Translations under genes and position numbers: made by a program | From: Alphaproteobacteria bacterium bin98 | GTDB lineage: Bacteria > Pseudomonadota > Alphaproteobacteria > Bin98 | Assembly: GCA_002238905.1 (NCBI GenBank) | Contig: MPNG01000001.1 | Location: 12,599 to 76,598 of the forward strand | Direction: 5' to 3' | Length of the DNA: 64,000 nt | In this document: positions 23,777 through 57,608 of the stretch, one piece after another | Position numbering within the stretch: the first letter of the stretch is position 1 | Layout of the letters: each line of letters begins with the position of its first letter | Notes under the pieces: generated by a model | Database searches by the model: none | What the model was told of the DNA's origin: nothing | What the model saw: only the letters and a program-made list of their open reading frames with translations

Positions 23777-23945
23777 CTCTATTCCTCCTATAAATAGCAA
23801 AGCCATTTTACACCATTTTGCGCCACCAGCAATATTTCTGAGCTGCAAAAGATATTTTTTTATGAATATACTCCTATTTTAGACTTAAATATGCCTTTTC
23901 GTTTAGTGAAATCAGGAAATTAAAAAACTCCAGGAGGCTCAGCGT

Positions 23946-24548: not shown

Positions 24549-24559
24549 AAATCAGTGGT

Positions 24560-25175: not shown

Positions 25176-25365
25176 CCAATCTCTATCTTAAATTAATATA
25201 CCATTATATACAGAAGGCTATTTGCACAAAAATATTTATTTCATTGAGAAGAAATTATTATTGACTCATACAAGATAGAGCGAATTGAACTCTTGCATAA
25301 AAGATAGCAAGATCATCACCAAGATGATGATCTTGGTGCCTGGCATACTGTTTCAATCTGCTTCA

Positions 25366-26136
25366 TTACCTTTGTTGTTTTTTTGCACCGACAAAGTGAC
25401 CGTTGTAATCTATGCTCTTGCCCAGTGAACCAAACTGTGCATTTTGCCATTCCAACCAATACTTTCTACAGTGCCATAGATCTCTTTGATGAAAATAGTA
25501 AAAAGATGATAAGAGTTTGGAATATATTGCCATGGACATTTCTTTCTTTGAGGTAGGCGTTTCAGTTTTTTGTGCATATAATTCAGGATATTTATCCGAT
25601 ATAACAAAAGCCCAATAAAAGTTTTCCATAGTAAGATAACAGTGTAGAGATTTGATAGTACCGAATCGATATTTCCACTCACTTTTACTTATTCTAGTAG
25701 TAATTCCCCCGCATTCTTTAAGCTTTGATTGCAGCGATTGTGTCTCACGATATGATTGATTAATATCATATTTTTCCCAAGGCATTCCAATACACCAACC
25801 ATCAAACTGACTTCTGTGCACATCAAAATCTGCTTGTGCGCAGTCCCAGGCCAGAACGCCATGTGGTGCACATATGAAAAAGAGCTGTTGCGCAAAAGCT
25901 GGGTGATAATATGCAAAAGCTGCTTGAGGCTCAGCATATGGAACAGTCTCCTTACGCAATTTTATGACCAGCTTGGTCTCGCCCTGCTTCATCTCTTTTG
26001 GCAGAACTATTCTATCCTGATTATACTCATCCTGAAAAAAGCGTTTTCTGGTGCTATCTTTTGCGCGTTCATTTGTAACGATATTGCTTTCAGCGCCTTG
26101 TGCGTGCAAACAAAGTAAAAATAATAGTAAGGTCAT
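25366..26136 (-). CDS. leader + family secreted protein (subfamily J)
   Basis: The track ORF runs to 26163. Leader MTLLLFLLCLHAQGAES starts at ATG 26136. Motifs CYLTMENFYWAFVISD, YSKLLSSFYYFHQRDLWHCRKYWLEWQ. Confidence 0.85.
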   Translation of the reverse strand: MTLLLFLLCLHAQGAESNIVTNERAKDSTRKRFFQDEYNQDRIVLPKEMKQGETKLVIKLRKETVPYAEPQAAFAYYHPAFAQQLFFICAPHGVLAWDCAQADFDVHRSQFDGWCIGMPWEKYDINQSYRETQSLQSKLKECGGITTRISKSEWKYRFGTIKSLHCYLTMENFYWAFVISDKYPELYAQKTETPTSKKEMSMAIYSKLLSSFYYFHQRDLWHCRKYWLEWQNAQFGSLGKSIDYNGHFVGAKKQQR

Positions 26137-26376
26137 CGATCCCTTGGTAAAAATAATATACAAAATTATACACTGTATTTTTTTAATATGATTTATTAAA
26201 AAGAAAAAATAGTAGTTTATTTTTTTTTGAGAAAAAAGCTGTCAATTCGATCAATCTTATTGGCATACATAACACTACATGTAATGTTGCTCAACAAAAA
26301 GAATATACCCACAAAGAATATACTCACGACACACAATACATAATACTATATACAATCGACAAAAAATATCAAAAGG

Positions 26377-26650
26377 CATGCCAAAAATTACTGTTAGCTT
26401 TAAAGGATTTGCGTGATGGAGATAAAGTTAAAGCTAAGTCACGGCATGATTATCTATGGAAAGAATTCGCTTGAATTTTTTGAAATAATAATATACTCTT
26501 CGATTTAATTTTATTTGCAAACATTGCACAATATTTTGATTTCTCGATGATTTTTCATACTTATAGCGTTGTCTTTGCATGCAATAAAAAAGTAGGGATT
26601 ATCCTCCTTTTTTACAATATAGTGCAGCACACTACGCTTCTTTTTCTTTT
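26377..26650. repeat. copy 1 of a ~270-bp repeated segment (see 30156..30425); its upper end carries a polybasic-CaaX coding remnant
   Basis: catgccaaaa.tta.tgttag...gattaaattttttgaaata.taataatata...cttcgatttaattttatt.tgcaaacatt aligns with 30156..30425. On the minus strand, 26650..26612 reads KRKRSVVCCTIL-stop. Confidence 0.75.
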
Positions 26651-26657
26651 TCATCAA

Positions 26658-36863: not shown

Positions 36864-38510
<1,647 letters not shown>

Positions 38511-38985: not shown

Positions 38986-39591
38986 TCACATCCACCTTAC
39001 AACCCTTTGTTGGAGTGTATTGACCAAACATTGCCACTTATAATATTCGTCCTCAGCGTCTAATTTCTTTTCCTCACAATAATATTTCAAAGATAATAAG
39101 AGGGTAGAGTACACGCTACCACTGTCCAGAGAGACAGATGCACCTTTTGCTTCTAAAAGTAATCTCTCGAATTCTGTACTTGTAGTACAAAAAGCACAAA
39201 GGTACGTTAGTGGGTTAAGATGAAAATACCGAGCTCTGCAATCCACCATTGCTTGACGTCTCCTCTCATCATTTTCTAGCAACTTCTCTTTGTTGCAGAA
39301 CTGTGCAAGCATATCTTCTACTGGTGTTACGCAATCTTTCATTAATCGCTGAAAATCATTAGTGTGTATTGTCCCGCACGGTAAAGTTAAAGTAGAAAAA
39401 AAATCTTTCAAACCTGTTCTGCACTCATCAAAAGATCGTTGATCCATTTTCCATTTAAAATATCGCAACCCCATATCTTCTGCTGATTGAGTCCTAAATA
39501 GCATATATCTATACAATTCAGACTCAGAGTCCTTCCCGCTCTCTGTTCCATGAGAGTATGAGCATATCAAAAATATTAATATCAGTTTCAT
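38986..39591 (-). CDS. leader + LLSS-FC family secreted protein (subfamily K-like)
   Basis: Leader MKLILIFLICSYSHGTESG. Motifs FHLNPLTYLCAFCTTS, YSTLLLSLKYYCEEKKLDAEDEYYKWQ. Confidence 0.85.
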   Translation of the reverse strand: MKLILIFLICSYSHGTESGKDSESELYRYMLFRTQSAEDMGLRYFKWKMDQRSFDECRTGLKDFFSTLTLPCGTIHTNDFQRLMKDCVTPVEDMLAQFCNKEKLLENDERRRQAMVDCRARYFHLNPLTYLCAFCTTSTEFERLLLEAKGASVSLDSGSVYSTLLLSLKYYCEEKKLDAEDEYYKWQCLVNTLQQRVVRWM

Positions 39592-41351: not shown

Positions 41352-42488
41352 TTGTCCAAAGAGCATATTTTTTCACTAAAAGATGACACAATATACTCAA
41401 GGAGATGCATTGTGCTAGAAGCCAATAGCCATGTTTTAATATCCAAGCAAAGTTTAAGAAGCAATTATCAATTTTTTGCTGATTATGTCTCTTCGGCTAA
41501 TGTTGCAGTGGTGTTGAAAAATAATGGATTTGGATATGGCTATGCAGAAATAACACCCGCACTCTATGCACAAGGCTGTAGGCGGTTTTACGTTGCAGAT
41601 GTAGAAGAAGCGCTCCGTATGCGGTCTTTTATGCCACATCAAGATGTTATTATAGCCCCCCTCTTTCCTCTAATTTCTCAAAACTCTCTTCACACTATGC
41701 GCAAGGCCGACCTTACCCCCTCCTTGAACAGCGTTGAAGATATTCAAACATACCTACGCTATGGGTGTGGAAAATCTTGTGTGGTGCGCGTAAGTTTTGG
41801 TCTCAATGTGGGTGTGCCTTATCAAAAAATTGCAGAATTAAAAGGTGAATTAGGCAAAATCAAGCAACTCACCGTTTTGGGGCACCTTCCTTTTGCAGAT
41901 GACAAAAATTCTTCTCATAACACAAATGCTCTAAAGGATATGATCGCACTGCGTCAACATTTGCCAGATGCGCGTTTTAGTTTGGCTTCTACAGCGGCAA
42001 TATTCCTTGGAAGTGAGTTTTTTATGGATGAAGCGCGTATAGGTGTGGGTTTGTTTGGTGCTGTTCATTTTTCTAACAACAATGCTGCAAAAAATGCGCA
42101 AGACAAAATTTCCTTTGCTTTAAAATTAAAAGCTTACACACGACATTCTTATTCTGTAAAAAAAGGTCAGATCCTTGGGTACGAAAGCATCGCAAAAGAA
42201 GATATGCAGATGGTGGTTGTGAGCTGTGGGTACGCAAATGGCCTTCCGATACAAAAAAGTAAAGAGCCACTCTCACTTCCATATCAAGGCAAATCTCTAA
42301 GATTAGTTCCAGAAACTCTCTCAATGTATAACGCATCTTTTGCTACTAACGATATTATTGCTTCTGGAGAAGAAGTCACTCTTCTAAAATCCTTTGAAGA
42401 TAGCATGCAATTTCGTCGTATAGAAAAAATCAACCACTCCGAATTGCTTCTGCGCATAAGCCGCGCCCACCAACAATTTATTCCGTAA
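41352..42488 (+). CDS. alr: alanine racemase (divergent)
   Basis: PLP-lysine region VVLKNNGFGYG (cf. canonical AVVKANAYGHG). ..ILGYES.. and VVVSCGYANGLP (cf. IPIGYADGY). The track start is TTG 41352. An in-frame GTG at 41412 follows AAGGAG and is an alternative start. Confidence 0.7.
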   Translation: MSKEHIFSLKDDTIYSRRCIVLEANSHVLISKQSLRSNYQFFADYVSSANVAVVLKNNGFGYGYAEITPALYAQGCRRFYVADVEEALRMRSFMPHQDVIIAPLFPLISQNSLHTMRKADLTPSLNSVEDIQTYLRYGCGKSCVVRVSFGLNVGVPYQKIAELKGELGKIKQLTVLGHLPFADDKNSSHNTNALKDMIALRQHLPDARFSLASTAAIFLGSEFFMDEARIGVGLFGAVHFSNNNAAKNAQDKISFALKLKAYTRHSYSVKKGQILGYESIAKEDMQMVVVSCGYANGLPIQKSKEPLSLPYQGKSLRLVPETLSMYNASFATNDIIASGEEVTLLKSFEDSMQFRRIEKINHSELLLRISRAHQQFIP

Positions 42489-42677
42489 ACACTATGTTTG
42501 TGTGAAGGACAGCTTCTTTGTCAATATGAGCATTTTTAATTCAACCGTGATTAATATCATGACTTTAAAAATAATGTAACGCTATCATGTCGTAATATTA
42601 TGATTTTCAATTTTCTTACATGATCATGGAGCGAAAAAAGTTTTTGAATCAGAAAATATATTAATCATATGGGTGAG

Positions 42678-43313
42678 TTAAACAAGCATAAAGATCAATT
42701 CGCTCAGCACAACATCACGAGCCTCGTATTCATACATGTGTGTGAGACGCCAAATATTATATTTTCGTTCAGCGACTTCCTTATTATCCGCACAGTAAGC
42801 TTGAAAAGCTGATAAGAGGAGCCAATACTGCTGCGTATATATTGGGTCTAGCGAAGAGAGATCTTTTTTATATCTTGCCTCTAAGAGTAGTGAGTGACCC
42901 CTCTCTCTCAATACTAAAAAAGCATAACAAAAGATCTTTGCATCAAGCTCAAAGTACACATCTAGGAGATTTTTCTCATAATTCACATCACCTGCTCTGA
43001 AGACATCCCTTTTTCAGAAGGCATCAAGTACATTTTCTATTTGCTCTGAGAAAGCCATTAATTCTTTAAGATTCCTTATATCAAAAAAATTTTGAGGGTT
43101 TAATATATCTTGACAGGTTTTCCTGCAGGTGAAACATTCTTGATTTTTTGCCACCTAATAGTGCGCATAGCTTGCTCCTGGATTATAATCCGTTCACTAA
43201 TTTTCTTGAGTCTGAGAAGATCAGCAGAATTCTCTAACGATATTGCGTCATCTGCTTCATGCGCCAGTGAATAGATTAAAAATAGTAAGATTAATTTGAT
43301 AAATGCATTTCAT
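42678..43313 (-). pseudogene. decayed subfamily K gene (paralog of 43379..44029)
   Basis: Only the C-terminal 102-aa ORF survives (..YWLLLSAFQAYCADNKEVAERKYNIWRL). Upstream the homologous sequence is frame-broken. The degenerate leader MKCIYQINLTIFNLFTGA-stop starts at ATG 43313. Confidence 0.75.
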
Positions 43314-43378
43314 AGAGAAACCGTATCACATCTTCATCATACCCTCAATCAATTTAAGAGTGGATGGGTTGAAAGGGC

Positions 43379-44029
43379 TTAGATTAGCTCCATGTTCTGC
43401 TGCATCACAAAATCACGAACCTTGTGTTCCTGTAGGTGTGTGAGACGCCAAATATTATATTTTCGTTCAGCGACTTCCTTATTATCATCAGAGTAAGCTT
43501 GAAAAGCTGATAAGAGGAGATGATACTGCTCCGCATATATTGGGTCTAGCGAGCAATCTTGCCTCAACATTATATAGCTTGCCTCTAATAATACTGCGCC
43601 ACACTTCTTTCTCAATACTAGAAAAGCATCATAGAAGGTCTTTGCATCAAGCTCAAAGAGCACATCTAAGAACTTTTGTGAAGAACCCACCTCCCCTGTT
43701 CTGAATATATTATTGCTTTTGCAGAAGGTGTCAAGCTTATTTTCTATGCGCTCTGAGAAAGCCATTAATGTTTCAAGATTGCTTATATCAAGAAAATTGT
43801 AAGGATTTAATATATCTTGACAGGCTTGCCTGCAAGTGAAACATTTTTGATTTTCTTTCCAGCGAACACAGCGCATATCTTGCCTCTCGATAGGCAAACA
43901 GCACTTGATTTCCCTTATTCTTTGAAAATCAGCATAATTCTCCAAATCGATTTCGGCACCTGCTCCATGCGCCAGTGAATAGATTAAAAATAATAAGATT
44001 AATGTCATGCTCATAAATGTACCTTTCAT
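43379..44029 (-). CDS. leader + LLSS-FC family secreted protein (subfamily K)
   Basis: Leader MKGTFMSMTLILLFLIYSLAHGAGAE. Motifs FELDAKTFYDAFLVLR, YHLLLSAFQAYSDDNKEVAERKYNIWRL. Confidence 0.85.
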   Translation of the reverse strand: MKGTFMSMTLILLFLIYSLAHGAGAEIDLENYADFQRIREIKCCLPIERQDMRCVRWKENQKCFTCRQACQDILNPYNFLDISNLETLMAFSERIENKLDTFCKSNNIFRTGEVGSSQKFLDVLFELDAKTFYDAFLVLRKKCGAVLLEASYIMLRQDCSLDPIYAEQYHLLLSAFQAYSDDNKEVAERKYNIWRLTHLQEHKVRDFVMQQNMELI

Positions 44030-44505
44030 AGAAAAATCATATCACATGTTCTTCATATCCTCACTTTGTCAATCAATACATTTAACAAAAGTATTATTTT
44101 TCTCATCACTCACATGATCTGTTGACAAAATGAAGTGACCAATTTGGAATTTGGATAGACAACTTCTAGCGGTTGGTGAGCCCAATCACAGTATTTTTTC
44201 TTATATTTCTCTTTATTTTTGTTTGAGAGATTTCATCAATGCCAACGAAGAATATAATGCTTTGTTAGCTCTTGTAATAGCATATAGAGATAGACCTCTA
44301 TTGCAATTTTGTACATTATTAAAAAATCAAAAATTTGAGAAGACTGTTTACACTTTTCCTCTAGAGAGAAAATCAGCTATTTCAACACACCTCCATGCCT
44401 CTTGAACGCAGTCTATGTTCGCAATCAAAAATTTATATAGTAAGGTACAGGTTTTGTGCTGACTATTTAGCGTATTCTCCCGCTTCAAGATTTTAGCCTA
44501 TTCTG

Positions 44506-45155
44506 CTAGGCATTATTAATCCACGTACTCTTCTTCCTTGAGCAAATCCTTAGTAACATTCCTTCGTGGAGGTGTATAAAACGACAAATATTAAACTTTC
44601 GTTCAGATTCATCTTGAATTTCTAAAGAGTAATTTCGAAGATCTGATAAGAGACTATGATACTCCTGAATGTATCTTAAGCCTTGCAGAGGAGGGCCGCT
44701 CTCGCATTGATATTCTCTCTCTAAGCATCGTAAATGCACATTTCCTCTCAAGAGTGAAAAAGCACAGAAGAAGGTTAATGCATTAAGTTCAAATCTCCTC
44801 TTTAGGGACTCTGACATATCAAAATACACAACATCCCAATCGCCTATTAGATCAATTTTGTGTCAGAATTCTGCAAGCATCATATTAAGAAAAACTGCAG
44901 GATCGAGATTCTTTTCAAAATATTCTCGGACAGAATCAAAACGTTGTTGATCTGAGGTCCAGTTAAAAGCGCGCATACCTCGCTCTTTAACTGTTAAACG
45001 AAGCAATGAATAAAACCTTTGTGCGTCAGCAACATCCTCAAGAGGATGGCTCTCTCTGAAAGACGGTTTGACATAAGTTAATGATGCTCCATGAGCTTTT
45101 GAATAGATAAAAATTAAAAAAACAATAACATAAATTTTTTTCTCAACATGAGCAT
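44506..45155 (-). pseudogene. subfamily K gene 'B' with two lesions (leader frameshift + in-frame TGA)
   Basis: The leader region reads ..MLLFF-stop. By my count the run is A7 at 45116-45122, versus A8 in the duplicate at 46429-46436. The body frame is open but has gaa ttc tga cac at ~44870. The C-terminal ORF 44506..44829 keeps FELNALTFFCAFSLLR..YHSLLSDLRNYSLEIQDESERKFNICRF. Confidence 0.7.
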
Positions 45156-45321
45156 TTTCAATGAAACCGTAATTAATATTATCACTTGAAAAAAATAATT
45201 TATAACGCTGACATGTCGAATATTATTATTTTTAATCTGTTTACATGCTCATGGCGCTAAAAAAGTTTTTGAACCAGATAGACTATATTAATCATCTTGA
45301 TGAATTAAGGGTCTTGGAAAC

Positions 45322-46098
45322 TCAGTGCGGCCCAGCTCTCCTCCGCATCACAGCATCACGAACATTAGGTCCCTCGAGGTATCTGAGACGCCAAATATTA
45401 TATTTTCGTTCAGCTTTTTCATGATTCTCCACACAGTAAGCTTCCATAGCTGATAAGAGGTCATGATACTGCTGGATGTATATTGGCGGAGACAAATATT
45501 GCTGAAATTCTGGCTGATCGTACAGACAGTAATTTTGAAAAGATAATAAGAGGTCGCGACACTCCGGCGTGTACGCTGAGTTTGACGGAGACAAATATTG
45601 CTGAGATAATTTTTTATATCTTTGCGCTGATAATACTGACGTAACATGGCCTCTCAACATTGCAAAAGCACAGAAGAAGCTGAATGCATTAAGCTCAAAG
45701 AGCTCATCTGTGACAATGTTCACAACAGACTTCATATCAGCATAAGCGATTAAATTATGGTGCTGGTTTTTCTTCAGAAGCTCTTCTAATTCCACTGAAA
45801 ATGCCATTAATTCTTCAAGATCGACCATCTCAATCCACTTCTGAGAATCGAGTATTTTTTTACAAGCTTCCCCGCAATTCCCAAAATGTTCTTGATTTTT
45901 TATCCTGTTGAGCTCCCGCACACCTTGCCTTTCTACTGACAGACGGTTGAGTGCAGTTATTCTTTGCGCATCAGCAAACTCCTCCAGAATGGTGGTGGGC
46001 TCTGCTCCATGCGCCAGTGAATAGATTAAAAATAATAAGATTAATGTCATGAATAAACCTCTAATACAAAGTTTATATCCTATTCTCAGCTTTATCAA
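45322..46098 (-). CDS. leader + LLSS-FC family secreted protein (subfamily K, duplicate 1)
   Basis: ..MTLILLFLIYSLAHGAEP (possible start at internal ATG 46050). Motifs FELNAFSFFCAFAMLR, YHDLLSAMEAYCVENHEKAERKYNIWRL. Confidence 0.85.
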   Translation of the reverse strand: MIKLRIGYKLCIRGLFMTLILLFLIYSLAHGAEPTTILEEFADAQRITALNRLSVERQGVRELNRIKNQEHFGNCGEACKKILDSQKWIEMVDLEELMAFSVELEELLKKNQHHNLIAYADMKSVVNIVTDELFELNAFSFFCAFAMLRGHVTSVLSAQRYKKLSQQYLSPSNSAYTPECRDLLLSFQNYCLYDQPEFQQYLSPPIYIQQYHDLLSAMEAYCVENHEKAERKYNIWRLRYLEGPNVRDAVMRRRAGPH

Positions 46099-46139
46099 TG
46101 AAGAAATTTAAAAAAATGATTGTTCCCCTCATGTTCACA

Positions 46140-46499
46140 TCATACCAACATTGGTTGTGAGAATTCCATTAATTTTTTAATACACTTTATATTAAGAAAA
46201 ACTGCAGGATCGAGATTCTTTTCAAAATATTCTCGGACAGAATCAAAACGTTGTTGATCTGAGGTCCAGTTAAAAGCGCGCATACCTCGCTCTTTAACTG
46301 TTAAACGAAGCAATGAATAAACCCTTTGTGCGTCAGCAACATCCTCAAGAGGATGGCGCTCTCTGATAAAACGGTTTGACATGACATAAGTTAATGATGC
46401 TCCATGAGCTTTTGAATAGATAAAAATTAAAAAAAACAATAACATAAACTTTTTTCTCAACATGAGCATTTTCAATGAAACCGTAATCAATATTATCAC
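46140..46499 (-). pseudogene. 5' half of gene 'B' (duplicate copy), truncated at the duplication junction
   Basis: ..MLLFFLIFIYSKAHGASLTY..KERGMRAFNWTSDQQRFDSVREYFEKNLDPAVFLNIKCIKKLMEFSQPMLV-stop. The leader is intact, but there is no mid or C-terminal family motif. The ORF ends inside sequence that is the 5' flank of 45322..46098. Confidence 0.7.
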
Positions 46500-46638
46500 T
46501 TGAAAAAAAATAATTTATAATGCTGACATGTCGTTAATATTATTATTTTTAATCTGTTTACATGCGCATGGAGCTAAAACAGTTTTTGAACCAGATAGAT
46601 TATATTAATCATCTTGATGAATTAAGGATCTTGGAAAC

Positions 46639-47415
46639 TCAGTACGGCGCTCTCTCCTTCACAGCAGCACAAACATTAGGTCCATTGAGGTATGTAAGAC
46701 GCCAAATATTATATTTTCGTTCAGCTTTTTCATGATTCCCCACACAGTAAGCTTCCATAGCTGATAAGAGGTCATGATACTGCTGGATGAGCATTTCTGG
46801 CGGAGACAAAGATTTCTTAGATTTTGGCCGCTCGTACAGACAGTAATTTTGAAAAGATAATAAGAGGTCGCGACACTCCGGCGTGTACACTGACTCTGAC
46901 GGAGACAAATATTGCAGAGATAATTTTTTATATCTTTGCGCTGATAATACTGACGTAACCTGGCCTCTCAACATTGCAAAAGCACAGAAGAATTTGAATA
47001 CATCAAGCTCAAAGTACTCATCTGTGACATTGATAACAACAGCCTTCATATCAGGACGAGTGATTAAATCAGTCTGCTGGTTTTGCTTCAGAAGCTCTTC
47101 TAATTCCACTGAAAATGCCATTAATTCTTCAAGATCGACCATCTCAATCCACTTCTGAGAATCGAGTATTTTTTTACAAGCTTCCCCGCAATTCCCAAAA
47201 TGTTCTTGATTTTTTATCCTGTTGAGCTCCCGCACACCTTGCCTTTCTCCTGACAGATGGTTGATTTCATTTATTCTTTGCGCATCAGCAAACTCCTCCA
47301 GAATGGTGGTGGGGGGCTCTGCTCCATGCGCCAGTGAATAGATTAAAAATAATAAGATTAATGTCATGAATAAACCTCTAATACAAAGTTTATATCCTAT
47401 TCTCAGCTTTATCAA
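46639..47415 (-). CDS. leader + LLSS-FC family secreted protein (subfamily K, duplicate 2)
   Basis: ..MTLILLFLIYSLAHGAEPP. Motifs FELDVFKFFCAFAMLR, YHDLLSAMEAYCVGNHEKAERKYNIWRL. Confidence 0.85.
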   Translation of the reverse strand: MIKLRIGYKLCIRGLFMTLILLFLIYSLAHGAEPPTTILEEFADAQRINEINHLSGERQGVRELNRIKNQEHFGNCGEACKKILDSQKWIEMVDLEELMAFSVELEELLKQNQQTDLITRPDMKAVVINVTDEYFELDVFKFFCAFAMLRGQVTSVLSAQRYKKLSLQYLSPSESVYTPECRDLLLSFQNYCLYERPKSKKSLSPPEMLIQQYHDLLSAMEAYCVGNHEKAERKYNIWRLTYLNGPNVCAAVKERAPY

Positions 47416-47695
47416 CGAAGAAATTTAAAAAAATGATTGTTCCCCTCATGTTCACATCATACCAACAAAGGTAGTAAGCACTCGGAATTTGATATCTTAT
47501 AAGGGCTGTTGAAACAAAGCATGACAAGTTGCATTGTGAGACGTTGCGCAATCTAAGAAGTCATAATAGAGAAATCTTAAAAAAAAGCGTGTGAGAATAT
47601 TGACAGATTCATATTATGTGAATGAGTTGTGTTGGTCCAAATTTGCTCTGCAAACACCATTTTTTCGTGCAAAGTACAATGATATAATACAAAAG

Positions 47696-50600
47696 ATGAT
47701 CACACCTGAAAACAATCGCCCTTTTTTTATCCATCTGCGCATGTCATCCTCTTACTCCTTAGCACAAAGCGCCATTAGCATTCAATCTGCTATTCATTAT
47801 GCAAAAGATCATAATATTCCAGCGTTGGCGATCACAGATGCGCAAAATCTTTTTGGAGCTTTTGAATTTTCATTAAAATGCTTAGAGCATGGCGTGCAGC
47901 CTATTTTAGGAGCCACCATAGAAATTTTCATGAGTGAGACAGAAGAAAACGCGCAGCTTCTGTTGTTGGCACAATCTGAAGAAGGTTTCAAAAACATCTC
48001 TTCTTTGGTGAGTCAATATCATCTGACAAATACACCCTGCTCTTGGGAGGATTTGCGCGCAAAAAATACTGGTGTCATCTGTCTTTCTGGTGGCATACAT
48101 GGCCCAATAGGTCGTCATATATTGGCCAATGATACCGACCAAGCCCTTCGTGTTGCAAAAAAAACTAAAAATATCTTTCAAGACAGATTTTATTTAGAGA
48201 TTATGCGCCATCACCGCGAAGAAGAAGTGAAAACAGAAGAGATATTTTTAAAAATTGCTATAGATGAGCATATTCCTATTGTGGCAACTAATGAGTGTTT
48301 TTACACACAAAAAAATATGTTTGATGCACATAATGTTCTTTTATGTTTAAATGCAGGTGCTTATATTCACTCAGCAGATAGACCACACAGCAATCCATAC
48401 TTTTATTTACGAACTCCACAAGAAATGGCCGAGCTGTTCTTGGATCTACCTGAAGCCCTTGCTAACACTGTCCATATTGCACAAAGATGTCACTTTTACT
48501 TAACACCTATGAAGCCAGAGCTTCCTCACTTCCCTAAAGTGGGTGATGAAACCGAAAACGCTATGATTATGCGTGTTGCTAAGCAAGGGTTAGCAACACA
48601 CATCAAGAATCATAGAGTGTGTGAGCATATTGCCCAAAATATTTACGAAGAGCGCATTGATTATGAGCTTGAGGTTATTACAAAAATGGACTTTTCTGGC
48701 TATTTCCTTATTATGTCGGATATTATTTTATGGGCCAAAAACCAAGGCATACCCGTTGGCCCAGGCCGTGGTTCAGCAGCAGGATCTCTTGTCGCATGGA
48801 CCATGGGTATTACCAATGTGGATTCGTTAGCATTTGATCTTCCTTTTGAGAGATTTTTGAATCCTGACCGTATTTCTATGCCAGATTTTGATGTAGATTT
48901 TTGTCAAGAGCGGCGTGAAGAAGTGATACATTATGTGCGTGATCTCTACGGAGAAGACTGCGTTGCACAAATAATTACCTTTGGAACATTGCAGGCGCGT
49001 GGTGTACTCCGAGATGTAGGTCGTGTTTACCAGCTTCCTTATATGCAAGTTGATAATTTGTGTAAGCGCATTCCTAACCAGCCCGGTCAACACGTCTCCC
49101 TTGCGGAAGCCCTTAAAGATGATCCTATTTTGCAAGATGAATTTGATAATAAGCCTGAAATAAAAAAGGTTTTTGAAATAGCTATGCAACTAGAAGGTTT
49201 GCATAGGCACGCCTCAACACATGCCGCTGGTGTTATCATCTCTAGTCGCCCAATTGCTGATATCATTCCTATTTATAAAGACGCCAATACAGATCTGCAA
49301 GTCACACAATATACAATGAAGTATGTTGAATTTGCAAGCTTAATCAAATTTGATTTTTTGGGCCTCAAAACACTTTCTGTATTAGCAAAAACAACAGAAC
49401 TTTTGAGCAACGATGGATATGATTTTAATCTTGATAGTTTAGATTTTAACGATGAACAAACATTTTCCCTTCTTGGCACAGGTATTACAGGTGGAGTTTT
49501 TCAAATGGAAGGCTCAGGCATGCAAGAACTGTTACGCCAAGCAAAGCCTGATTGTTTTGACGACATTATCGCCATTGTGGCACTTTACAGGCCTGGCCCT
49601 ATGGAAAACATTCCTAGTTTTTTGGCACGTAAACAAGGAAAAGAAAAGGTAGTCTACCTTCACCCTCTCTTAGAAGACATTTTAAAAGAAAGCTACGGCA
49701 TTCCCATTTATCAAGAACAGGTTATGCGCATTGCTCAAAAATTGGCGGGGTATTCAATGGGTGAAGCAGATTTGTTGCGTAGAGCTATGGGCAAAAAGAT
49801 TCCTAAAGAAATGGCAGCTCAAAAAAAGAGATTTCTAGATGGTTCTTCCAGAAACAATGTTTCTTTAGAGATTGCGGAAACTTTATTTGAGCAAATTGCA
49901 CGCTTTGCTGGGTATGCCTTTAATAAATGCCACGCTACATGCTACGCCTTTATTGCCTACCAAACAGCGTACATGAAGTCCCATCACCTCCCCTATTTTA
50001 TGGCTGCCTCTTTAAGCTTTGATATTAATAATGCCGCCAAAATATGGGAGCACAGCAAGAGTCTTTCTGTCTTAGGAAGCGACCTTTTGCCACCAGACAT
50101 TAACGCTTCAGATGTATGGTTTTCTGTTCAAAAATCAGGAGATAAAAAGTGTGTGAGGTTTGCATTAAGTGCTATTAAAAATGTAGGATCTCATATGGCA
50201 GAAACTATAGTAGAGGAAAGAAAAAAGAAGCGCTTTTCTTATCCTTCCGAGTGTTTTCAAAGGCTGCTTATGGCTGGTGTTAGCAAGCGCACTATTGAAC
50301 AATTAATGAAGGCAGGAGCTCTTGACTCTATAGAAAGAAATCGTGCTCTCTTGGAGTATATTTTCTCTGACACAAAAGAATGGATGCCGGATGGCAAAAA
50401 AATAGCAGATGACCAGCCTTCCTTCTTTGCTGAAGATTCTGTGAGCATCGTTGAAGACAATCGGCCTTCACTCATCCACAAAGGCATTGTGGATAAAGGA
50501 TTGCCTCAAAAAGCAGAAGATGAAAAACAAACTCTTGGTATTTATGTACAGTATCACCCTTTGGCGCCTTATAAAAAAATCATTAAAACCATGAATTTAT

Positions 50601-51109
50601 TGAGTATTGAAGGCGCTTATGGATTGTCAGACAAAGCGATGAGTTGTTCAATTATTGCCATTGTGAGCTCTATTACTGCTAGAAAAACGCAAGATGGGCG
50701 ATCATTCTCTATTCTTGAAATTGCGGATGAAAAAGCAACCATGAGCTTATTTCTTTTTAATAAAGAGCTGGAAAAAGTTTCTGCCTATAGCGCGGGCGAT
50801 ATTGTTGTGCTTCGCTGCTCAATTCGCAAATCGGATCGTGGAAGACGTTTTAATCTCGTGGACATACATGGAACAGAGGCGCTGTTGGCGGATATGAAAC
50901 GCCAAAATATTATCATTAATATTAATGCTTTTGTTAATATTCAAAAGTTGCTTGATATGATACAAGCCGCTCTTTTTGAAGGCGGCCCTCACACAATAAC
51001 AATTTGCTTGGAGGGTACGGTGGATTTGCCTCTTAAGCAAACATTTCTTTTCACAAATTATGTGTTGATGGAAATGGCAAAAATTGCTAATATTCAACGC
51101 AAAACGTAA
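47696..51109 (+). CDS. dnaE: DNA polymerase III alpha subunit
   Basis: PHP-domain start MITPENNRPFFIHLRMSSSYSL. Motifs ..GPGRGSAAGSLVAWTMGITNVD, PDFDVDFC, FDFLGLKTLS, ALYRPGPM, IYQEQVM. The track ORF begins at GTG 47591, but the conserved N-terminus begins at ATG 47696. Confidence 0.97.
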   Translation: MITPENNRPFFIHLRMSSSYSLAQSAISIQSAIHYAKDHNIPALAITDAQNLFGAFEFSLKCLEHGVQPILGATIEIFMSETEENAQLLLLAQSEEGFKNISSLVSQYHLTNTPCSWEDLRAKNTGVICLSGGIHGPIGRHILANDTDQALRVAKKTKNIFQDRFYLEIMRHHREEEVKTEEIFLKIAIDEHIPIVATNECFYTQKNMFDAHNVLLCLNAGAYIHSADRPHSNPYFYLRTPQEMAELFLDLPEALANTVHIAQRCHFYLTPMKPELPHFPKVGDETENAMIMRVAKQGLATHIKNHRVCEHIAQNIYEERIDYELEVITKMDFSGYFLIMSDIILWAKNQGIPVGPGRGSAAGSLVAWTMGITNVDSLAFDLPFERFLNPDRISMPDFDVDFCQERREEVIHYVRDLYGEDCVAQIITFGTLQARGVLRDVGRVYQLPYMQVDNLCKRIPNQPGQHVSLAEALKDDPILQDEFDNKPEIKKVFEIAMQLEGLHRHASTHAAGVIISSRPIADIIPIYKDANTDLQVTQYTMKYVEFASLIKFDFLGLKTLSVLAKTTELLSNDGYDFNLDSLDFNDEQTFSLLGTGITGGVFQMEGSGMQELLRQAKPDCFDDIIAIVALYRPGPMENIPSFLARKQGKEKVVYLHPLLEDILKESYGIPIYQEQVMRIAQKLAGYSMGEADLLRRAMGKKIPKEMAAQKKRFLDGSSRNNVSLEIAETLFEQIARFAGYAFNKCHATCYAFIAYQTAYMKSHHLPYFMAASLSFDINNAAKIWEHSKSLSVLGSDLLPPDINASDVWFSVQKSGDKKCVRFALSAIKNVGSHMAETIVEERKKKRFSYPSECFQRLLMAGVSKRTIEQLMKAGALDSIERNRALLEYIFSDTKEWMPDGKKIADDQPSFFAEDSVSIVEDNRPSLIHKGIVDKGLPQKAEDEKQTLGIYVQYHPLAPYKKIIKTMNLLSIEGAYGLSDKAMSCSIIAIVSSITARKTQDGRSFSILEIADEKATMSLFLFNKELEKVSAYSAGDIVVLRCSIRKSDRGRRFNLVDIHGTEALLADMKRQNIIININAFVNIQKLLDMIQAALFEGGPHTITICLEGTVDLPLKQTFLFTNYVLMEMAKIANIQRKT

Positions 51110-51240: not shown

Positions 51241-52446
51241 ATGCATCATCGTCAATTTGTCATCTGGTCTGGATGGTTAGTAGTATCACTTTTTTATGCG
51301 TATCAATACATTTTACGCGTACTTCCTAACATTATTTTGCCATTTCTGACAGAGCGTTATGCCATGGACGGAGTGCTCTTTGGACAATTTTCAGGCTTAT
51401 ACTACACAGGTTATGCGCTTGCGCATGTTCCTTTAGGTATCCTATTGGATCGATTTGGTGTTAAAAAAGTTCTTCCCCTTAGTTTTGCATTAACATTTTT
51501 AGGTATTTTACCCATTATTTATGGAAGTACCTGGCATTATCCCGCCATTGGACGATTGATCACGGGCATTGGCTCATCAGCAGCTATATTGGGTGCATTT
51601 CAATATATACGTCTCGTTTTTTCTGAGGGACGATTTACGCGCGTTTTGAGCATGACTGTTACCGTTGGTTTGATGGGTGCCATTTATGGAGGACAGCCCA
51701 CACAATATCTTTGCGATACTTACGGCGTGTATACTGTTATACACTTTTTAGTTGTTGTTGGATGTTTACTTTCTCTGGCAGCATATATCATTATGCCTAC
51801 CTCTAAAAAAGAACATCAAAAAAAGATTGGTTTTAAAGAAATTTTCCAAATCCTGACAAACACACGTACCTTATTGCTCGCCATTGCTTCTGGCTTTATG
51901 GTAGGCGCATTAGAAGGGTTTCCAGACGCTTGGGGTGTGGCTTTTTTAACAAAAGTGCACAACGTTACCGCCAAAGATGCCGCACAATTAACATCCTTTA
52001 TCTTTTTCGGCATGTGTTTTGGCGGCCCTCTTTTAAGCTACATTGCTGACAGCACAAAGCGTTATGTAGAAACCATTATTGGGGCTGGATTGGTGATGAC
52101 AGCATTGTTCTTTATTATTTTATTTTGCTCAGTGCCCGTGAGCTTGCTTTACATATTCTTCGTCATTATTGGTATCTCTTGCGCTTACCAAATCCCTGCT
52201 ATTTATCAAGCATCAACATATGTTGAAAAACAATTCACTGGCCTTGCCACCGCTCTCGTCAATATGGTGATTATGGGGTTTGGACACTTGCTTCACTCAA
52301 CAATTGGTGCAACAGTGAACTCTTATGGAGGGATTGACTCTGTATCTGGTTTGCACGCCGGCGTCTTAACGGTACCGATCACTTGTGTAATGGGTGTTAT
52401 GCTGCTTTTGTTGTTTAGAAAGTCTCTAGAAAAAGGTGGCTCATGA
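51241..52446 (+). CDS. MFS transporter, paralog 1 of 3
   Basis: 401 aa, polytopic. MFS motif-A-like GILLDRFGVKKVL between predicted TM2 and TM3. Conserved YAYQYILRVLPNI. The stop overlaps the next start (ATGA). Confidence 0.85.
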   Translation: MHHRQFVIWSGWLVVSLFYAYQYILRVLPNIILPFLTERYAMDGVLFGQFSGLYYTGYALAHVPLGILLDRFGVKKVLPLSFALTFLGILPIIYGSTWHYPAIGRLITGIGSSAAILGAFQYIRLVFSEGRFTRVLSMTVTVGLMGAIYGGQPTQYLCDTYGVYTVIHFLVVVGCLLSLAAYIIMPTSKKEHQKKIGFKEIFQILTNTRTLLLAIASGFMVGALEGFPDAWGVAFLTKVHNVTAKDAAQLTSFIFFGMCFGGPLLSYIADSTKRYVETIIGAGLVMTALFFIILFCSVPVSLLYIFFVIIGISCAYQIPAIYQASTYVEKQFTGLATALVNMVIMGFGHLLHSTIGATVNSYGGIDSVSGLHAGVLTVPITCVMGVMLLLLFRKSLEKGGS

Positions 52447-53648
52447 GCAATAGATTAAAAGGATTACCTCTTTGGATCAGTTGGCTATTTGCCACCGCTT
52501 TTTATGCGTATCAATACATATTACGTGTACTTCCTAATATAATGTATGAACCTATTGTCAAAAAATTTTCGATTGATGCTCATATTTTTGGTCAATTTTC
52601 TGGCGTTTACTATACAGGGTACGCCTTGGCTCATATTCCTCTAGGTATTCTATTGGATCGATTTGGTGTCAGAAAAACACTCCCACCTATGATTATTATT
52701 TCTGTATGTGGGCTTCTTCCTATTCTGTATTCAGATTTATGGCTATATCCTGTCATTGGAAGATACCTCACAGGTATTGGTTCAGCAGCAGCCCCTCTTG
52801 CAGCTTTTTATATTATTAGAATTGGATTTTCTGAATCCCAAGGCCCACGTATGCTGAGCTGGTTTGTGACCTTTGGTTTACTAGGCGCCATTTATGGAGG
52901 CACTCCCACCACTTATTTTTGTCAAAAATTTGGATATGAATCTGTTCTGAAAAGCACCATTGTTTTTGGATTTTTTATGGCTTTTATTGGCTTTTTGTAC
53001 CTACCAAAAGAAGAGAGCAAAAAAAGAAAATATGCTGCGTTGCAAGGAATATGGAAAATTCTTAAAAACAAAAAAACCATTATTATTGCCTTATCTTCTG
53101 GCTTAATGGTTGGTTCATTAGAGGGATTTCCAGATGCATGGGGAGGCATTTTTCTTACGAAAGTCTACGGTCTTGATCTAAATCTAAGTGCGCACTTAAC
53201 TTCCTTAATTTTTCTAGGCATGTGTTTTGGCGGCCCATGTTTAGCTTTTATTGCCGAATATCTGAAAAAACCTATTATGACAGTCATTTTAGCAGGATGC
53301 GTTATGACAATAACATTTTGTTCAATTCTTTTATTCACCCTATCAACAATCTTGTTAAATGTTATGTTTGTGTGTGTTGGCATTTGTTGTGCCTATCAAA
53401 TGATAGCTATATACAAAGCAGCGTCTTATGTAGACCCTAACTCCGCCACCTTAGCGACAGCTATTGTTAATATGATTATTATGATTTTTGGTCATATCCT
53501 ACACACCAGCATTGGTGCGGTCGTAGCATATAACGGAGGCATGCAAAGTATCTGGGGCTTACAAATGGGCATAAGCGTTATACCTATGTTCTGCCTAATG
53601 GGTGTTGTAGTGTTAGCCTATAACTATAAAAGATTGAGGAAGGATTAA
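52443..53648 (+). CDS. MFS transporter, paralog 2 of 3
   Basis: 401 aa. Motifs YAYQYILRVLPNI, GILLDRFGVRKTL. Collinear with its neighbours. Confidence 0.85.
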   Translation: MSNRLKGLPLWISWLFATAFYAYQYILRVLPNIMYEPIVKKFSIDAHIFGQFSGVYYTGYALAHIPLGILLDRFGVRKTLPPMIIISVCGLLPILYSDLWLYPVIGRYLTGIGSAAAPLAAFYIIRIGFSESQGPRMLSWFVTFGLLGAIYGGTPTTYFCQKFGYESVLKSTIVFGFFMAFIGFLYLPKEESKKRKYAALQGIWKILKNKKTIIIALSSGLMVGSLEGFPDAWGGIFLTKVYGLDLNLSAHLTSLIFLGMCFGGPCLAFIAEYLKKPIMTVILAGCVMTITFCSILLFTLSTILLNVMFVCVGICCAYQMIAIYKAASYVDPNSATLATAIVNMIIMIFGHILHTSIGAVVAYNGGMQSIWGLQMGISVIPMFCLMGVVVLAYNYKRLRKD

Positions 53649-53650
53649 AT

Positions 53651-54856
53651 ATGATGTCTGTAAGCTTAGCGATGTGGCGCAATTGGTCATTTATCACACT
53701 GTTTTATGCCTACCAATATATAGTGCGCGTATTACCCAATATTATCTACAAACCTATTGTAGAAACCTTTGGCATTAATGCTACTATTTTTGGACAATTT
53801 TCAGGCATTTATTATATAGGATACGCATTAGCACACATACCTGTAAGCCTATTGTTTGATCGATTTGGATTGAAAAAAGTTCTACCACTAACGCTTTTAT
53901 TAATGGTGGGAGGGCTTTTGCCTATTATTTATACAGAATCATGGATTTACCCTGTATTTGGAAGATTTTTAACCGGCATTGGCTCTGCCTCCGTAACGCT
54001 GGCGGCTTTTCACATTATTCGTGTAGGATTTCCCGTGGCAAAACATCCTATGATGCTAAGTTTAACAATAGCATTGGGATTGGTTGGGGCTGTTTATGGA
54101 GGAAGGCCTACAGCTTACCTTTGCGACCAACTTGGACATGTAGCCGTTATTCAGATTTTGGTTGCGGTAGGCAGTATTATTTCTGTAATTTCTTATATTT
54201 CACTTCCTAAGGAAAAAAATCGTTTAAAAGATGTGCAAATTTTGAAAGGCCTTAAGCATGTTTTTTGTAACAAAAACACCATGTGGATGTCTCTTACAGC
54301 GGGTTTAATGATTGGATCACTTGAAGGTTTTCCAGATGCTTGGGGCGTTATGTTTTTTACAAAAGTATACGGACTTCAGTTTGATTACTCCGCCCAATTA
54401 ACCTCTCTTATATTTTTAGGTTTAGGAGTTGGCGGCCCATTGGTTAGCTACGCAGCAGAAAAAACTGGAAAAGCCCTTTGGTTTATTATCATCGCAGGCA
54501 TTTGTATGGCTGTTCCCTTTTTATTCTTTTTGGGAATGCAGCTTTCTGACACAATGCTGATCGTTTCATTGATTACTATTGGAGTGGGATGCTCTTATCA
54601 AATGCTCTCTATTTACCATGCCTCTTACTTTGTGGAAAAAAAATATGCCACTATTTCTACAGCAGTGGTGAATATGATTTTGATGGGGTTTGGACATTTA
54701 CTACACAGCGCAATTGGATGCACCGTCAATATTTCAGGCGGATTGGATAATGTGCAAGCCTTGAAAAATGGCCTTTATGTTGTTCCATTAGCCAGCCTTT
54801 TGGGTGCTATTATTTTAATTATTCGCAGAAAATATTTTCAAAACCTCAAATCCTGA
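53651..54856 (+). CDS. MFS transporter, paralog 3 of 3
   Basis: 401 aa. Motifs YAYQYIVRVLPNI, SLLFDRFGLKKVL. Starts 2 nt after the upstream stop. Confidence 0.85.
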   Translation: MMSVSLAMWRNWSFITLFYAYQYIVRVLPNIIYKPIVETFGINATIFGQFSGIYYIGYALAHIPVSLLFDRFGLKKVLPLTLLLMVGGLLPIIYTESWIYPVFGRFLTGIGSASVTLAAFHIIRVGFPVAKHPMMLSLTIALGLVGAVYGGRPTAYLCDQLGHVAVIQILVAVGSIISVISYISLPKEKNRLKDVQILKGLKHVFCNKNTMWMSLTAGLMIGSLEGFPDAWGVMFFTKVYGLQFDYSAQLTSLIFLGLGVGGPLVSYAAEKTGKALWFIIIAGICMAVPFLFFLGMQLSDTMLIVSLITIGVGCSYQMLSIYHASYFVEKKYATISTAVVNMILMGFGHLLHSAIGCTVNISGGLDNVQALKNGLYVVPLASLLGAIILIIRRKYFQNLKS

Positions 54857-55071
54857 CGCATGACATTTTTGAACAAATTTTTTTCTGACAGAGCAGAAAA
54901 AGGTTAGCTATATATTTTTGACACTCTACTTTTCAATCAATTCCTGCTAAAAACATAAATGAGGTATTTTTCCATGCCTTTAAAAGGTGATATTTTTTAG
55001 ATAAAAATAAATATTTTTATTTAAACAATATTATTCTATTGATGTATAATTTTTTCATCAAAAGGTATTAT

Positions 55072-55209
55072 ATGTCGCTACTGTTGTTCTTATTTTTTAT
55101 TGCTTTAGATTCCCAAGGATATCACAAGATTACAGATTTTATGGAGACTACTCTTGAGCACACTAAAGCCAAATGCGCCCCTACTCATAGAGTGATCCTG
55201 TCTAGATAA
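55072..55209 (+). pseudogene. leader-only stub homologous to the start of the 1204-aa gene at 57609
   Basis: MSLLLFLFFIALDSQGYHK.. versus MPVVLFLFFISLESQGACK... It sits in the same position relative to the duplicated MFS 3' flank and is only 45 codons long. Confidence 0.5.
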
Positions 55210-55528: not shown

Positions 55529-56095
55529 ATGATATTAATATTATTATTTTCAATCGCTTTAAATATTTATGGATCTGCTCGTACCATATACTACTCTCTA
55601 ACAAACTTAACAAATTCTGGGTTATCCAAACAAGTGATGTAAGACAGTTTGTCGGTTAAAGAAGTTGAGATACCGCGTAAACTATTTGTAGAATCTTGGC
55701 AAGAAGCAAAAGAATTTTCTGAATGTGTTGTGGTATATGAAAACATAAAACTAGCTCATACACAAACGTGTAAAAATCTAGATGCAATGCGTGAACTCAA
55801 TGAAAAAAATCCGAGACCAGAGACTCAAAGCGAGTTCATGCTATATTGCGACGTAGTGGAATCACTTCCAGAAACAACACGCCAACTAGAAGAAGCAGTA
55901 GTAGAGTTAGCAAAATCATCTAAAATCGCGAAAAGACAAAAGGAAGAAAAGAAGAAAAAAATACAATCTCAACATGCGGCATTAGACACAAATGAAGGAG
56001 TTTTGAAACTACTTGAAGATAGGGGAACGGTTGAAAAGCTTTGGCAATCATTGGAGGGACGTGCTAAAGTAGCGCAAAAGAAAACAATATACTAA
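55529..56095 (+). pseudogene. leader-bearing helical protein interrupted by one in-frame TAA (leader separated from body)
   Basis: ATG 55529 gives MILILLFSIALNIYGSARTIYYSLTNLTNSGLSKQVM, then TAA at 55640-55642. Two codons later, in the same frame, the 148-aa track ORF begins at TTG 55649 (55649-55529=120). Confidence 0.6.
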
Positions 56096-56868
56096 ATAGG
56101 ATGTGGGAAAAAGTATTCATAATGCTCTAAATACATTAAGCACCAGCGCGCATATTCTTGATCACTGCGGAGTCTTCTTTCATTACAGTAAAATTGAAAA
56201 GAATTTAAGAGGGCATAAAACATACTGTATATTATGCGGCGAGCCTTCTCACAGGGACCTCCTGGCCCACTATCCTGACAATTCTCCATAGCTACATCCT
56301 GTTTATAAGAGATTGATTCCATTCTAGAAAAAGCGTCGAAGAATTTTGATGGTGTAAGGTTAAATGGATGATTTGCCGTAAGCGATACGTCTTTTGTCAC
56401 ACCAGGTTCTAACGGGCTTTCACACTTTAATTGAATGGACGTCACTGGATTGGGTATAAGCGATACGTCTTTTGTCACACAAGGTTCTGACGTGCTTGTA
56501 AATTTTAATTGAGTGGGCGTCACTGGATTTGTAAGCAGCCCGTCTTCTATCTCACAAAATTCCACCGCGTATGCAAGATTTTTGTGTACAAATTTCATCC
56601 ATGTCCTGGCTGCCATATAATTAGCTGGACTATATTTCAGCATGCAATCCAAATCTACATTCCTAAAATTTTTAAATGTTATTCTGCGTGAGTCAAATTC
56701 TGCTTGATTTTTTGCCCATAAAGCACTATGGTAGTTCATCACCCTCCCTTGCATAGCACTCACGGAGTGAGCCATGTTTAAAAGAACTTTTTTCAGATAC
56801 CCATCATCTTCTTGAGATGTAGCGCCATAGACATATAAAGCACTTAAAAAAAATAGTAGAAATAACAT
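56092..56868 (-). CDS. leader + LLSS-FC family secreted protein (subfamily L)
   Basis: The track ORF runs to 56886. Leader MLFLLFFLSALYVYGATS starts at ATG 56868. Internal repeat NPVTPTQLKFTSTSEPCVTKDVSL / NPVTSIQLKCESPLEPGVTKDVSL. Motifs FNLTPSKFFDAFSRME, FYALLNSFQFYCNERRLRSDQEYARW. Confidence 0.85.
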   Translation of the reverse strand: MLFLLFFLSALYVYGATSQEDDGYLKKVLLNMAHSVSAMQGRVMNYHSALWAKNQAEFDSRRITFKNFRNVDLDCMLKYSPANYMAARTWMKFVHKNLAYAVEFCEIEDGLLTNPVTPTQLKFTSTSEPCVTKDVSLIPNPVTSIQLKCESPLEPGVTKDVSLTANHPFNLTPSKFFDAFSRMESISYKQDVAMENCQDSGPGGPCEKARRIIYSMFYALLNSFQFYCNERRLRSDQEYARWCLMYLEHYEYFFPHPI

Positions 56869-57157
56869 AAAAATATCCGACGTCATTATATCTCACGTTA
56901 TTCAATAATTCAATACATATCTGCTTGATTCAAATAAGGAATTGTCAAAACCCCAAATCCCTACGGAATACATTTTTAGACAAGCTTTTTTGTCTGAAAA
57001 AAACTGTATATAGGCTAAAATTTTTCTTTTTTAGCTAATGCCATTCCTCTTGAGCATTGCTTCAGAACAATCTTTAGATACTCTTAAAGCTACACTAGTA
57101 ATCAGAGCCTATCCATAAATGTGTATACAAATTAAAATAATACTAGCACCATTAAAT

Positions 57158-57379
57158 GGAAAAAAATATGCCACTATTTCTACAGCAGTGGTGAATATGA
57201 TTTTGATGAGGTTTGGACATTTACTACACAGCGCAATTGGATGCACCGTCAATATTTCAGGCGGATTGGATAATGTGCAAGCCTTGAAAAATGGCCTTTA
57301 TGTTGTTCCATTAGCCAACCTTTTGGGTGCTATTATTTTAATTATTCGCAGAAAATATTTTCAAAACATCAAATCCTGA
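57158..57379 (+). pseudogene. duplicated 3' fragment of MFS paralog 3
   Basis: KKYATISTAVVNMILM.FGHLLHSAIGCTVNISGGLDNVQALKNGLYVVPLA.LLGAIILIIRRKYFQN.KS is near-identical to the last ~72 codons of 53651..54856. The 3' flank is duplicated as well. Confidence 0.85.
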
Positions 57380-57608
57380 CGCATGACATTTTTGAACAAA
57401 TTTTTTTCTGACAGAGCAGAAAAAGGTTAGCCATATATTTTTGACACTCTACTTTTCAATCAATTCCTGCCTAAAAACATAAATGAGGCATTTTTCCATG
57501 CCTTTAAAAGGTGATATTTTTTAGATAAAAAATATTACTATGTTGTTTTCTTTTTTTGTTTTTCTTTTTACTATATACGATGTATAATTGAACCATTAGA
57601 GGTTTTTT

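Follow-up and report, generated by a model that had tools for sequence, protein, structure and literature searches.

Introduction

Duplication, gene conversion and diversification together form a familiar mode of evolution of exported and surface multigene families in host-associated bacteria. Here we describe a tandem array of six related genes and gene remnants, located on the minus strand at 42.6-47.5 kb of a 64,000-nucleotide stretch of DNA from Alphaproteobacteria bacterium bin98 (assembly GCA_002238905.1, contig MPNG01000001.1, positions 12,599 to 76,598 of the forward strand). This whole stretch is called the window below, and all coordinates are given in it. An earlier note, made from the sequence alone, had listed the six members and had proposed that the defective copies among them are either in plain decay or a stock of sequence for repair or switching by recombination.

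Several described systems resemble this array. In Helicobacter pylori, the babA/babB(/babC) and sabA/sabB genes likewise have near-identical 5' and 3' segments around diverged internal regions; intragenomic conversion among them generates chimeric alleles that differ between close strains, and the genes carry repeat tracts in their 5' coding parts. In the vlsE/vls system of Borrelia, msp2 of Anaplasma and pilE/pilS of Neisseria, as in the array, defective paralogues are found beside intact genes for exported or surface proteins, and recombination moves short tracts between copies. Eukaryotic venom or conotoxin-type superfamilies share with the array a conserved signal peptide followed by a fast-diversifying, cysteine-containing mature region, with a ratio of non-synonymous to synonymous divergence (dN/dS) >1, and they too expand by tandem duplication.

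The best explanation for the present locus is, with a probability of roughly two in three, that the array belongs to a lineage-restricted protein family and combines a recent tandem duplication, diversifying selection on its two intact A-type genes (A1 and A2), ongoing exchange, and decay of the broken copies B, B' and psiK.

Results

Organization of the array and its tandem duplication

The array is flanked by the alanine racemase gene alr (41352-42488, plus strand) and by dnaE (47591-51109, plus strand). Along the minus strand its members follow in the order A2, B', A1, B, K and psiK, and the coordinates and quoted peptides of the earlier note were all correct for these six. A1 (45322-46050) is intact and encodes 242 amino acids (protein P0001). 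A2 (46639-47367) is also intact, with 242 amino acids in the window strain and 243 in other strains; its alleles are P0007 (window), P0002, P0005 and P0006. The longest open reading frame (ORF) of A1 reaches a TTG at 46098, and the ends of A1 and A2 had previously been placed at 46098 and 47415. We read the upstream TTG rather as part of a promoter-like sequence, TTGATA-17-TAAACT, and translation probably begins at the ATGs at 46050 and 47367, each of which is preceded by AGAGG at a distance of 7 nucleotides (nt); gene callers likewise predict proteins of 242 amino acids. These promoter-like hexamers, which are a consensus match only, are found on the minus strand upstream of A2 (47387-47415), and an identical copy stands upstream of A1 at 46070-46098, within the duplicated segment.

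Global alignment resolved two head-to-tail units of ~1.27 kb that are ~93% identical overall. Unit 1 (44882-46150) comprises the 5' half of B, a spacer, A1 and the 100 nt upstream of A1, and unit 2 (46189-47467) comprises B', the spacer, A2 and the 100 nt upstream of A2. They are separated by a junction segment of 38 nt (46151-46188, minus strand), which is derived from B and encodes IKCIKKLMEFSQP, in agreement with the family motif; the matching stretch of B itself (~44845-44881) is diverged and shortened by 12 nt compared with this segment. The right end of each unit thus falls 100 nt upstream of an A start codon and the left end inside B, as expected if a segment made up of the B 5' half, the spacer, A and 100 nt had simply been duplicated in tandem. 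As proposed earlier, B' ends at the duplication junction, since the novel junction cuts it at 46150/46151. With the breakpoint inside B, B' would have been truncated at birth. The two units had also been described as offset by exactly 1317 bp; this value holds where the A genes begin and end and over the 100 nt upstream of them, but beyond these, in the spacer and the B/B' part, the offset falls to 1314, 1311 and 1307 because of small indels.

The earlier note had raised the concern that long reads might collapse the duplication as an assembly artefact, and we checked this across assemblies. The order dnaE, then genes of 243, 109, 242, 103, 211 and 102 amino acids, then alr, is common to independent ENA (MEGAHIT), JGI and NCBI assemblies. 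The exact B' product is encoded by 10 contigs, seven of which are 50-200 kb long, and long contigs show both units lying between dnaE and alr. Because its junction is reproduced in independent assemblies, the duplication is no artefact of assembly. A single A gene, present as two alleles or in two strains and wrongly laid in tandem, could explain the single-unit layout of three short contigs (L006, L008 and L009, see below), but this possibility is next to negligible given that the unique junction between B' and the region upstream of A1 recurs in different samples and with different assemblers.

Divergence of A1 and A2

A1 differs from the A2 allele of the window by 52 nucleotides and from the common A2 allele by 62, with only 3 synonymous differences. 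By the Nei-Gojobori method, dN/dS was 4.56 with the window allele (49 non-synonymous and 3 synonymous differences) and 4.88 with the common allele (60.5 and 3.5), and Fisher tests of the synonymous deficit gave P = 0.002 and P = 0.0007, respectively. The earlier note had pointed to the central patch of the genes for such an estimate; the ratio of 4.6-4.9 was instead computed over the whole gene. Since adjacent multi-nucleotide changes could inflate dN, we also ran a test on codons with a single difference, in which 3 of 36 or 44 changes were synonymous where 8.3 or 10.7 would be expected (P = 0.018 and P = 0.0027). In their first 30 codons and in the 100 nt upstream, the two genes are essentially identical. 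Taken from the sequences, this pattern indicates selection for diversification of the mature protein.

A different explanation is neutral birth and death, in which a recent duplication was followed by drift of all copies, A1 and A2 being relaxed or redundant and evolving without selection. This would fit the facts that three of the six members are dead, that the substitutions between K and psiK and between B and B' follow a neutral pattern, and that the strains are almost clonal. However, relaxation cannot make synonymous changes rarer than under neutrality: random placement of the same base changes in A1 predicts 15.3 synonymous changes, against the 3 of 62 observed (P = 5e-5). Codon positions 1, 2 and 3 carry 23, 28 and 11 of the A1/A2 changes, and both A reading frames remain open. 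Moreover, the non-coding and pseudogene parts of the unit diverge by 3.7% (19/511), and the dN of A1/A2 (0.09-0.115) lies above this value, with a dS of 0.02. Among control pairs, three tandem genes of the major facilitator superfamily (MFS) are under strong purifying selection, and K/psiK and B/B' are neutral. We consider drift without selection an unlikely account of the A genes.

The differences between A1 and A2 are clustered, as the earlier note had suggested and in contrast to an even spread; the variance-to-mean ratio in 50-nt bins is 3.0, a value that none of 5000 permutations reached. They do not form one central patch, as had been thought, but at least five clusters, at roughly residues 32-39, 94-124, 150-159, 178-191 and 208-242. 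This clustering, together with many adjacent doublets or triplets, the demonstrable activity of conversion at the locus and the dozens of paralogues in the genome, could also mean that the differences were imported in blocks from diverged paralogues, or arose by multi-nucleotide mutations, so that the high dN/dS would be an artefact of mosaicism. Yet no donor of the A1- or A2-specific patches was found in the 64-kb window. Older paralogue pairs have a dS of 0.35-2, so imported tracts should bring many synonymous differences, against the dS of 0.02 seen here, and the single-difference-codon test remains significant. Block import, too, is therefore improbable as the source of the signal, and diversifying selection is preferred. 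A donor of the diverged patch of B was likewise not found in the 64-kb window.

Among the amino-acid changes between A1 and A2, 26 of 51 alter charge. Polar residues are not significantly over-represented at the variable positions (P = 0.2), and a surface location of the variation is not supported by this comparison. Of the other strain-level single-nucleotide polymorphisms (SNPs) in the ~20-kb flanks, four lie within A1 and A2 (45626, 46901, 46914 and 47129), and each falls at an amino-acid difference among alleles.

As a separate observation, a second pair of the family on the minus strand (3596-4234 and 4689-5288) gave a dN/dS of 2.1 (104 non-synonymous and 14 synonymous differences), with a synonymous deficit at P = 0.01. 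Within A-type genes, a stretch of 99 nt (33 codons) is also duplicated in tandem and repeats QQYLSP...(D)LLLS(F/A)..YC; an exact 19-mer of this repeat occurs in A1 at 45487-45505 and 45586-45604 and in A2 at the corresponding positions. The helix motif that is doubled in the A-type genes is present only once in K and in B.

Gene conversion and possible hybrid haplotypes

The A2 gene of the window carries a tract at 47109-47195 (minus strand; 87 nt at minimum, 163 nt at maximum, 47086-47248) that differs from the nine other assemblies by 10 substitutions and a 3-nt deletion, and all 11 states equal those of A1. Over 20.7 kb, the window and one of these assemblies (L001) are separated by a single SNP outside this tract, and all nine carry the L001 state within it. 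The tract is a single A1-to-A2 gene conversion, because all of its states equal A1 while the flanks stay allele-specific. At the protein level, it changes EKSCREDCEKILGSR...LRTFSM to GNCGEACKKILDSQ...LMAFSV.

Recombination of another kind is suggested by contig L009 (ERZ27241797, MEGAHIT k141, 3.6 kb). From dnaE, this contig passes into a gene of A2 type to 46960 and of A1 type from A1 position 45602, and then continues through the unit-1 spacer and past the duplication boundary into sequence specific to the full-length B, so that one unit only is present (hybrid protein P0008). The crossover interval on the minus strand (46916-46960, or 45602-45646 in A1 coordinates) contains a 43-nt identical interval, with A2-type sequence on its 5' side and A1-type sequence on its 3' side. 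This looks like an unequal-crossover collapse to a single A2/A1 hybrid gene, and L009 may be a real haplotype. Two older JGI assemblies, L006 and L008, have a one-unit layout with a different crossover point, in a 99-nt identical interval. Searches of metagenome contigs with the A1 protein and with an exact 43-mer found nothing.

The deletion carried by strain L011 (1-2700) is another recombination-mediated structural variant of the window. The window contains direct repeats of ~450 nt (54668-55119 and 57191-57656), 90% identical, and L011 lacks the ~2.5 kb between them, including a 148-amino-acid ORF (55649-56095) and a member of the protein superfamily described below (56092-56886).

Fate of the defective copies

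B (44506-45155, minus strand) is full-length but dead. Relative to B', it shows a leader frameshift (T8 to T7), a TCA-to-TGA change and losses of 12 nt and 6 nt. Its leader tract reads A7 on the plus strand (45116-45122), compared with A8 in B' (46429-46436), and its in-frame TGA (44863-44865, plus strand) is a single C-to-G change of TCA (Ser) in the conserved family motif LM(A/E)FS. B' (46140-46499, minus strand) retains only the 5' half of a B-type gene, which the duplication junction interrupts, and encodes 109 amino acids from an ATG at 46469; it has an intact leader and still carries the TCA codon (46158-46160). B had been reported to lack 47 nt that B' possesses; alignment instead gives 12 + 6 + 1 nt, plus a diverged patch of ~24 nt. 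The 5' half of B was therefore probably intact at the time of the duplication and decayed afterwards. The last member, psiK (42678-43313, minus strand), is a pseudogene of K that lacks a start codon and contains a single frameshift and a single in-frame stop. An open frame survives over its C-terminal 102 codons (42678-42986), and it is 79% identical to K in DNA at an offset of ~704 nt, with 58% identity in the stitched protein.

According to the earlier note, each of B and B' holds what the other is missing. This does not extend to the whole gene: a crossover between B' and B could mend the leader frameshift, but not the TGA. The TCA codon of B' stands 7 nt from the duplication junction, beyond which lies the upstream region of A1, and a crossover confined to the shared segment (44882-45155) restores the T8 leader and leaves the TGA and the 12-nt loss of B in place. 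The complementary broken copies therefore cannot regenerate a working gene, because B' ends 7 nt past the TCA codon. Neither B/B' hybrids nor changes in tract length were seen in any assembly compared, and the lesions of the three defective copies do not vary among these assemblies. Substitutions between B and B' and between K and psiK are even across codon positions, as in neutral decay. The "plain decay" reading is thus favoured for B, B' and psiK by invariant lesions and neutral substitutions. As for recombinational repair or switching, the geometry speaks against it for these three copies; recombination does occur in the array, but between the intact genes A1 and A2. B, B' and psiK look like by-products of array turnover and not like a reservoir for repair or switching.

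Programmed variation was considered in two forms. In the first, B, B' and psiK would be silent cassettes of the vls, msp2 or pilS type; in the second, the A7/A8 tract would be a slipped-strand phase switch. Partly complementary defective copies do adjoin intact genes, a homopolymer is present in the leader, and recombination is active in the array. As far as consensus assemblies show, the silent-cassette reading was rejected: B' has lost its 3' end but not its 5' end and upstream region, the reverse of typical silent cassettes, it cannot repair the stop of B, and no pseudogene-derived mosaic patches were found in any K, B or A allele. Homopolymer phase variation was also rejected, at the consensus level, as the A7 tract of B and the A8 tract of B' are identical in all assemblies. 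A/T runs of at least 8 are common, with 27 in the window. Nor is the expressed gene highly variable within the population, as in silent-cassette systems: the assemblies differ by ~0.1% or less and contain few variants of the A genes, although minor variants can be hidden in a consensus. Programmed variation of either form is very improbable, and decay remains the preferred reading for these copies. B and B' have another homopolymer in their 5' untranslated region, which is likewise one base shorter in B (A7, 45189-45195) than in B' (A8, 46503-46510).

The array contains further fragments beyond the six members noted earlier. An inverted relic of the 5' end of a family gene, encoding MSLILLFLICLHAHGAKTVFEPDRLY followed by a stop, lies on the plus strand in the A-B spacer (46528-46608) and keeps its ATG; a second copy (45211-45291, plus strand) has lost it, and a third (~42594-42653, plus strand) is degenerate. 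The spacer downstream of each A- or K-type gene thus holds an opposite-strand signal-peptide relic, head-to-head with the B-type gene; the ATG of this relic survives in the unit-2 copy only. A third B-type leader relic, MLILTKKLSFTQT followed by a stop (42487-42573, minus strand), directly abuts the stop of the alanine racemase gene, which suggests that the array may once have gone on with another B-type gene.

An undescribed protein family

K (43379-44029, minus strand) is intact, encodes 211-216 amino acids (P0003), is 40% identical to A1 and begins with the signal-peptide-like N-terminus MTLILLFLIYSLAHGA. Sequence-profile searches with A1, A2, K and paralogues gave no Pfam, NCBIfam or PDB match, and AlphaFold2 predicts an all-helical structure. 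Paralogues that are otherwise 15-25% identical share the conserved N-terminus M-x-LILLFLI-x-x-x-AHG↓A. Inspection by eye shows a hydrophobic core, LILLFLIYSL, followed by AHG↓A and without a lipobox, and several conserved cysteines. This N-terminus looks like a signal peptidase I leader, and the A proteins are presumably exported in a Sec-dependent manner.

A profile built from 12 paralogues retrieved 46 clusters (50% identity) among 1.84 billion representative proteins, about 20 of which are encoded in the window. The superfamily includes window ORFs that pairwise BLAST had put in other "families", as well as two-domain forms, and one protein of 1581 amino acids (P0013) has nine copies of the family domain. 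The family appears to be confined to one uncultured lineage. The array proteins themselves have been deposited as hypothetical proteins MCY4413462-65 (locus tags OXC30_00545-00560) of a metagenome-assembled genome labelled "Alphaproteobacteria bacterium". A literature search for such records returned nothing of relevance.

Most window ORFs without a database match belong to this one superfamily, for example those at 1196-1771, 3596-6398, 6841-7407, 9883-11094 and 23210-30109, and further ones at 31501-32073, 36864-38510, 38986-39591 and 56092-56886. In the 548-amino-acid ORF 36864-38510, whose C-terminal part matches the superfamily profile, strains are polymorphic for a 6-nt indel at 37396-37401.

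Other features of the window

The window has ~37% GC. An Rfam scan of it returned one tRNA only, and Tandem Repeats Finder did not find short-period arrays in the array region. DnaE shows at most 50% identity to any relative among the 80 loci listed on contigs of GTDB species representatives, a set that did not include the representative of its own species; this fits a deep-branching or fast-evolving lineage. The DnaE scan of genome contigs was dominated by the universal MPDFDVDF motif and gave no sister-species loci. The three tandem MFS transporter paralogues (51241-54856, plus strand) have 401 amino acids each, and neighbouring genes share 4 nt or are separated by 2 nt. They are ~49% identical, with a dN/dS of 0.25-0.3 that reflects purifying selection. 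Downstream, a 1204-amino-acid ORF (57609-61223, plus strand) that has no match in Pfam is internally repetitive, with tandem repeats of ~300 nt at 72-80% identity.

Discussion

The results can be arranged into a possible course of events. The locus would be the dnaE-side end of a tandem array for small all-helical proteins with a signal-peptide-like N-terminus. A recent tandem duplication of ~1.27 kb, with breakpoints in the then-intact B and 100 nt upstream of A, would have produced A2 and the truncated B'. B would then have died by the leader frameshift, the TCA-to-TGA change and small deletions, and the A copies would have gained almost only amino-acid-changing differences, with the N-terminal 30 codons and the promoter-like region unchanged. 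RecA-type exchange may continue in nature, short conversion tracts shifting patches between A1 and A2 and unequal crossovers collapsing the duplication to a single hybrid gene. A host- or environment-facing role may drive the diversification.

Several points weigh against this account. The dN/dS derives from a single pair of genes with only 3 synonymous changes, and 8-10 codons with at least 2 differences inflate dN, even if the single-difference test is still significant. The A-B spacer differs by 6.6% (9/137), which is above dS and makes the neutral baseline noisy. The converted A2 allele (P0007) is seen in the window's own assembly only, although the cluster table lists 2 contigs for it. 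Finally, L009 is a short contig, and L006 and L008 could be assembler joins.

A whole-gene dN/dS well above 1 is uncommon between bacterial paralogues, and here it comes with population evidence of conversion and a possible copy-number collapse. It marks the A proteins as probable targets of selection for change and points to a function directed at a host, a partner or phage, and the locus offers an entry point for asking what this uncultured organism interacts with. For the narrower matter of the "complementary" broken copies, the answer is useful and negative, as they cannot yield a working gene. The family is new, and the process is of a known kind: genes for presumably secreted proteins are duplicated, exchange sequence by conversion and diversify under selection. 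A broader proposal is tentative and, by our own estimate, rather less likely to be right than wrong: the array would be one hot spot of an undescribed, presumably secreted superfamily that evolves in a venom-like mode, with a near-invariant signal peptide and a diversifying helical domain, through duplication, conversion and unequal crossover in an otherwise clonal population, and that would constitute the main arsenal of the lineage for interaction with a host or partner.

The systems named in the Introduction differ from the array in several respects. In contrast to vls, msp2 and pilS, donor and recipient are here both intact genes and the pseudogenes show no sign of acting as donors; moreover, B' is truncated at its 3' and not its 5' end, and population variation is minimal. 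Unlike venoms and conotoxins, the array is bacterial, its proteins are much larger and helical, and they have no propeptide architecture, so that the likeness is one of evolutionary mode only. The H. pylori bab genes encode beta-barrel adhesins at dispersed loci, and CT-repeat phase variation is documented for them, whereas here small helical proteins are encoded by a tandem duplication and the A7/A8 tract is invariant. With the proteins unrelated, the closest analogy would nevertheless be the conversion between babA and babB in Helicobacter pylori.

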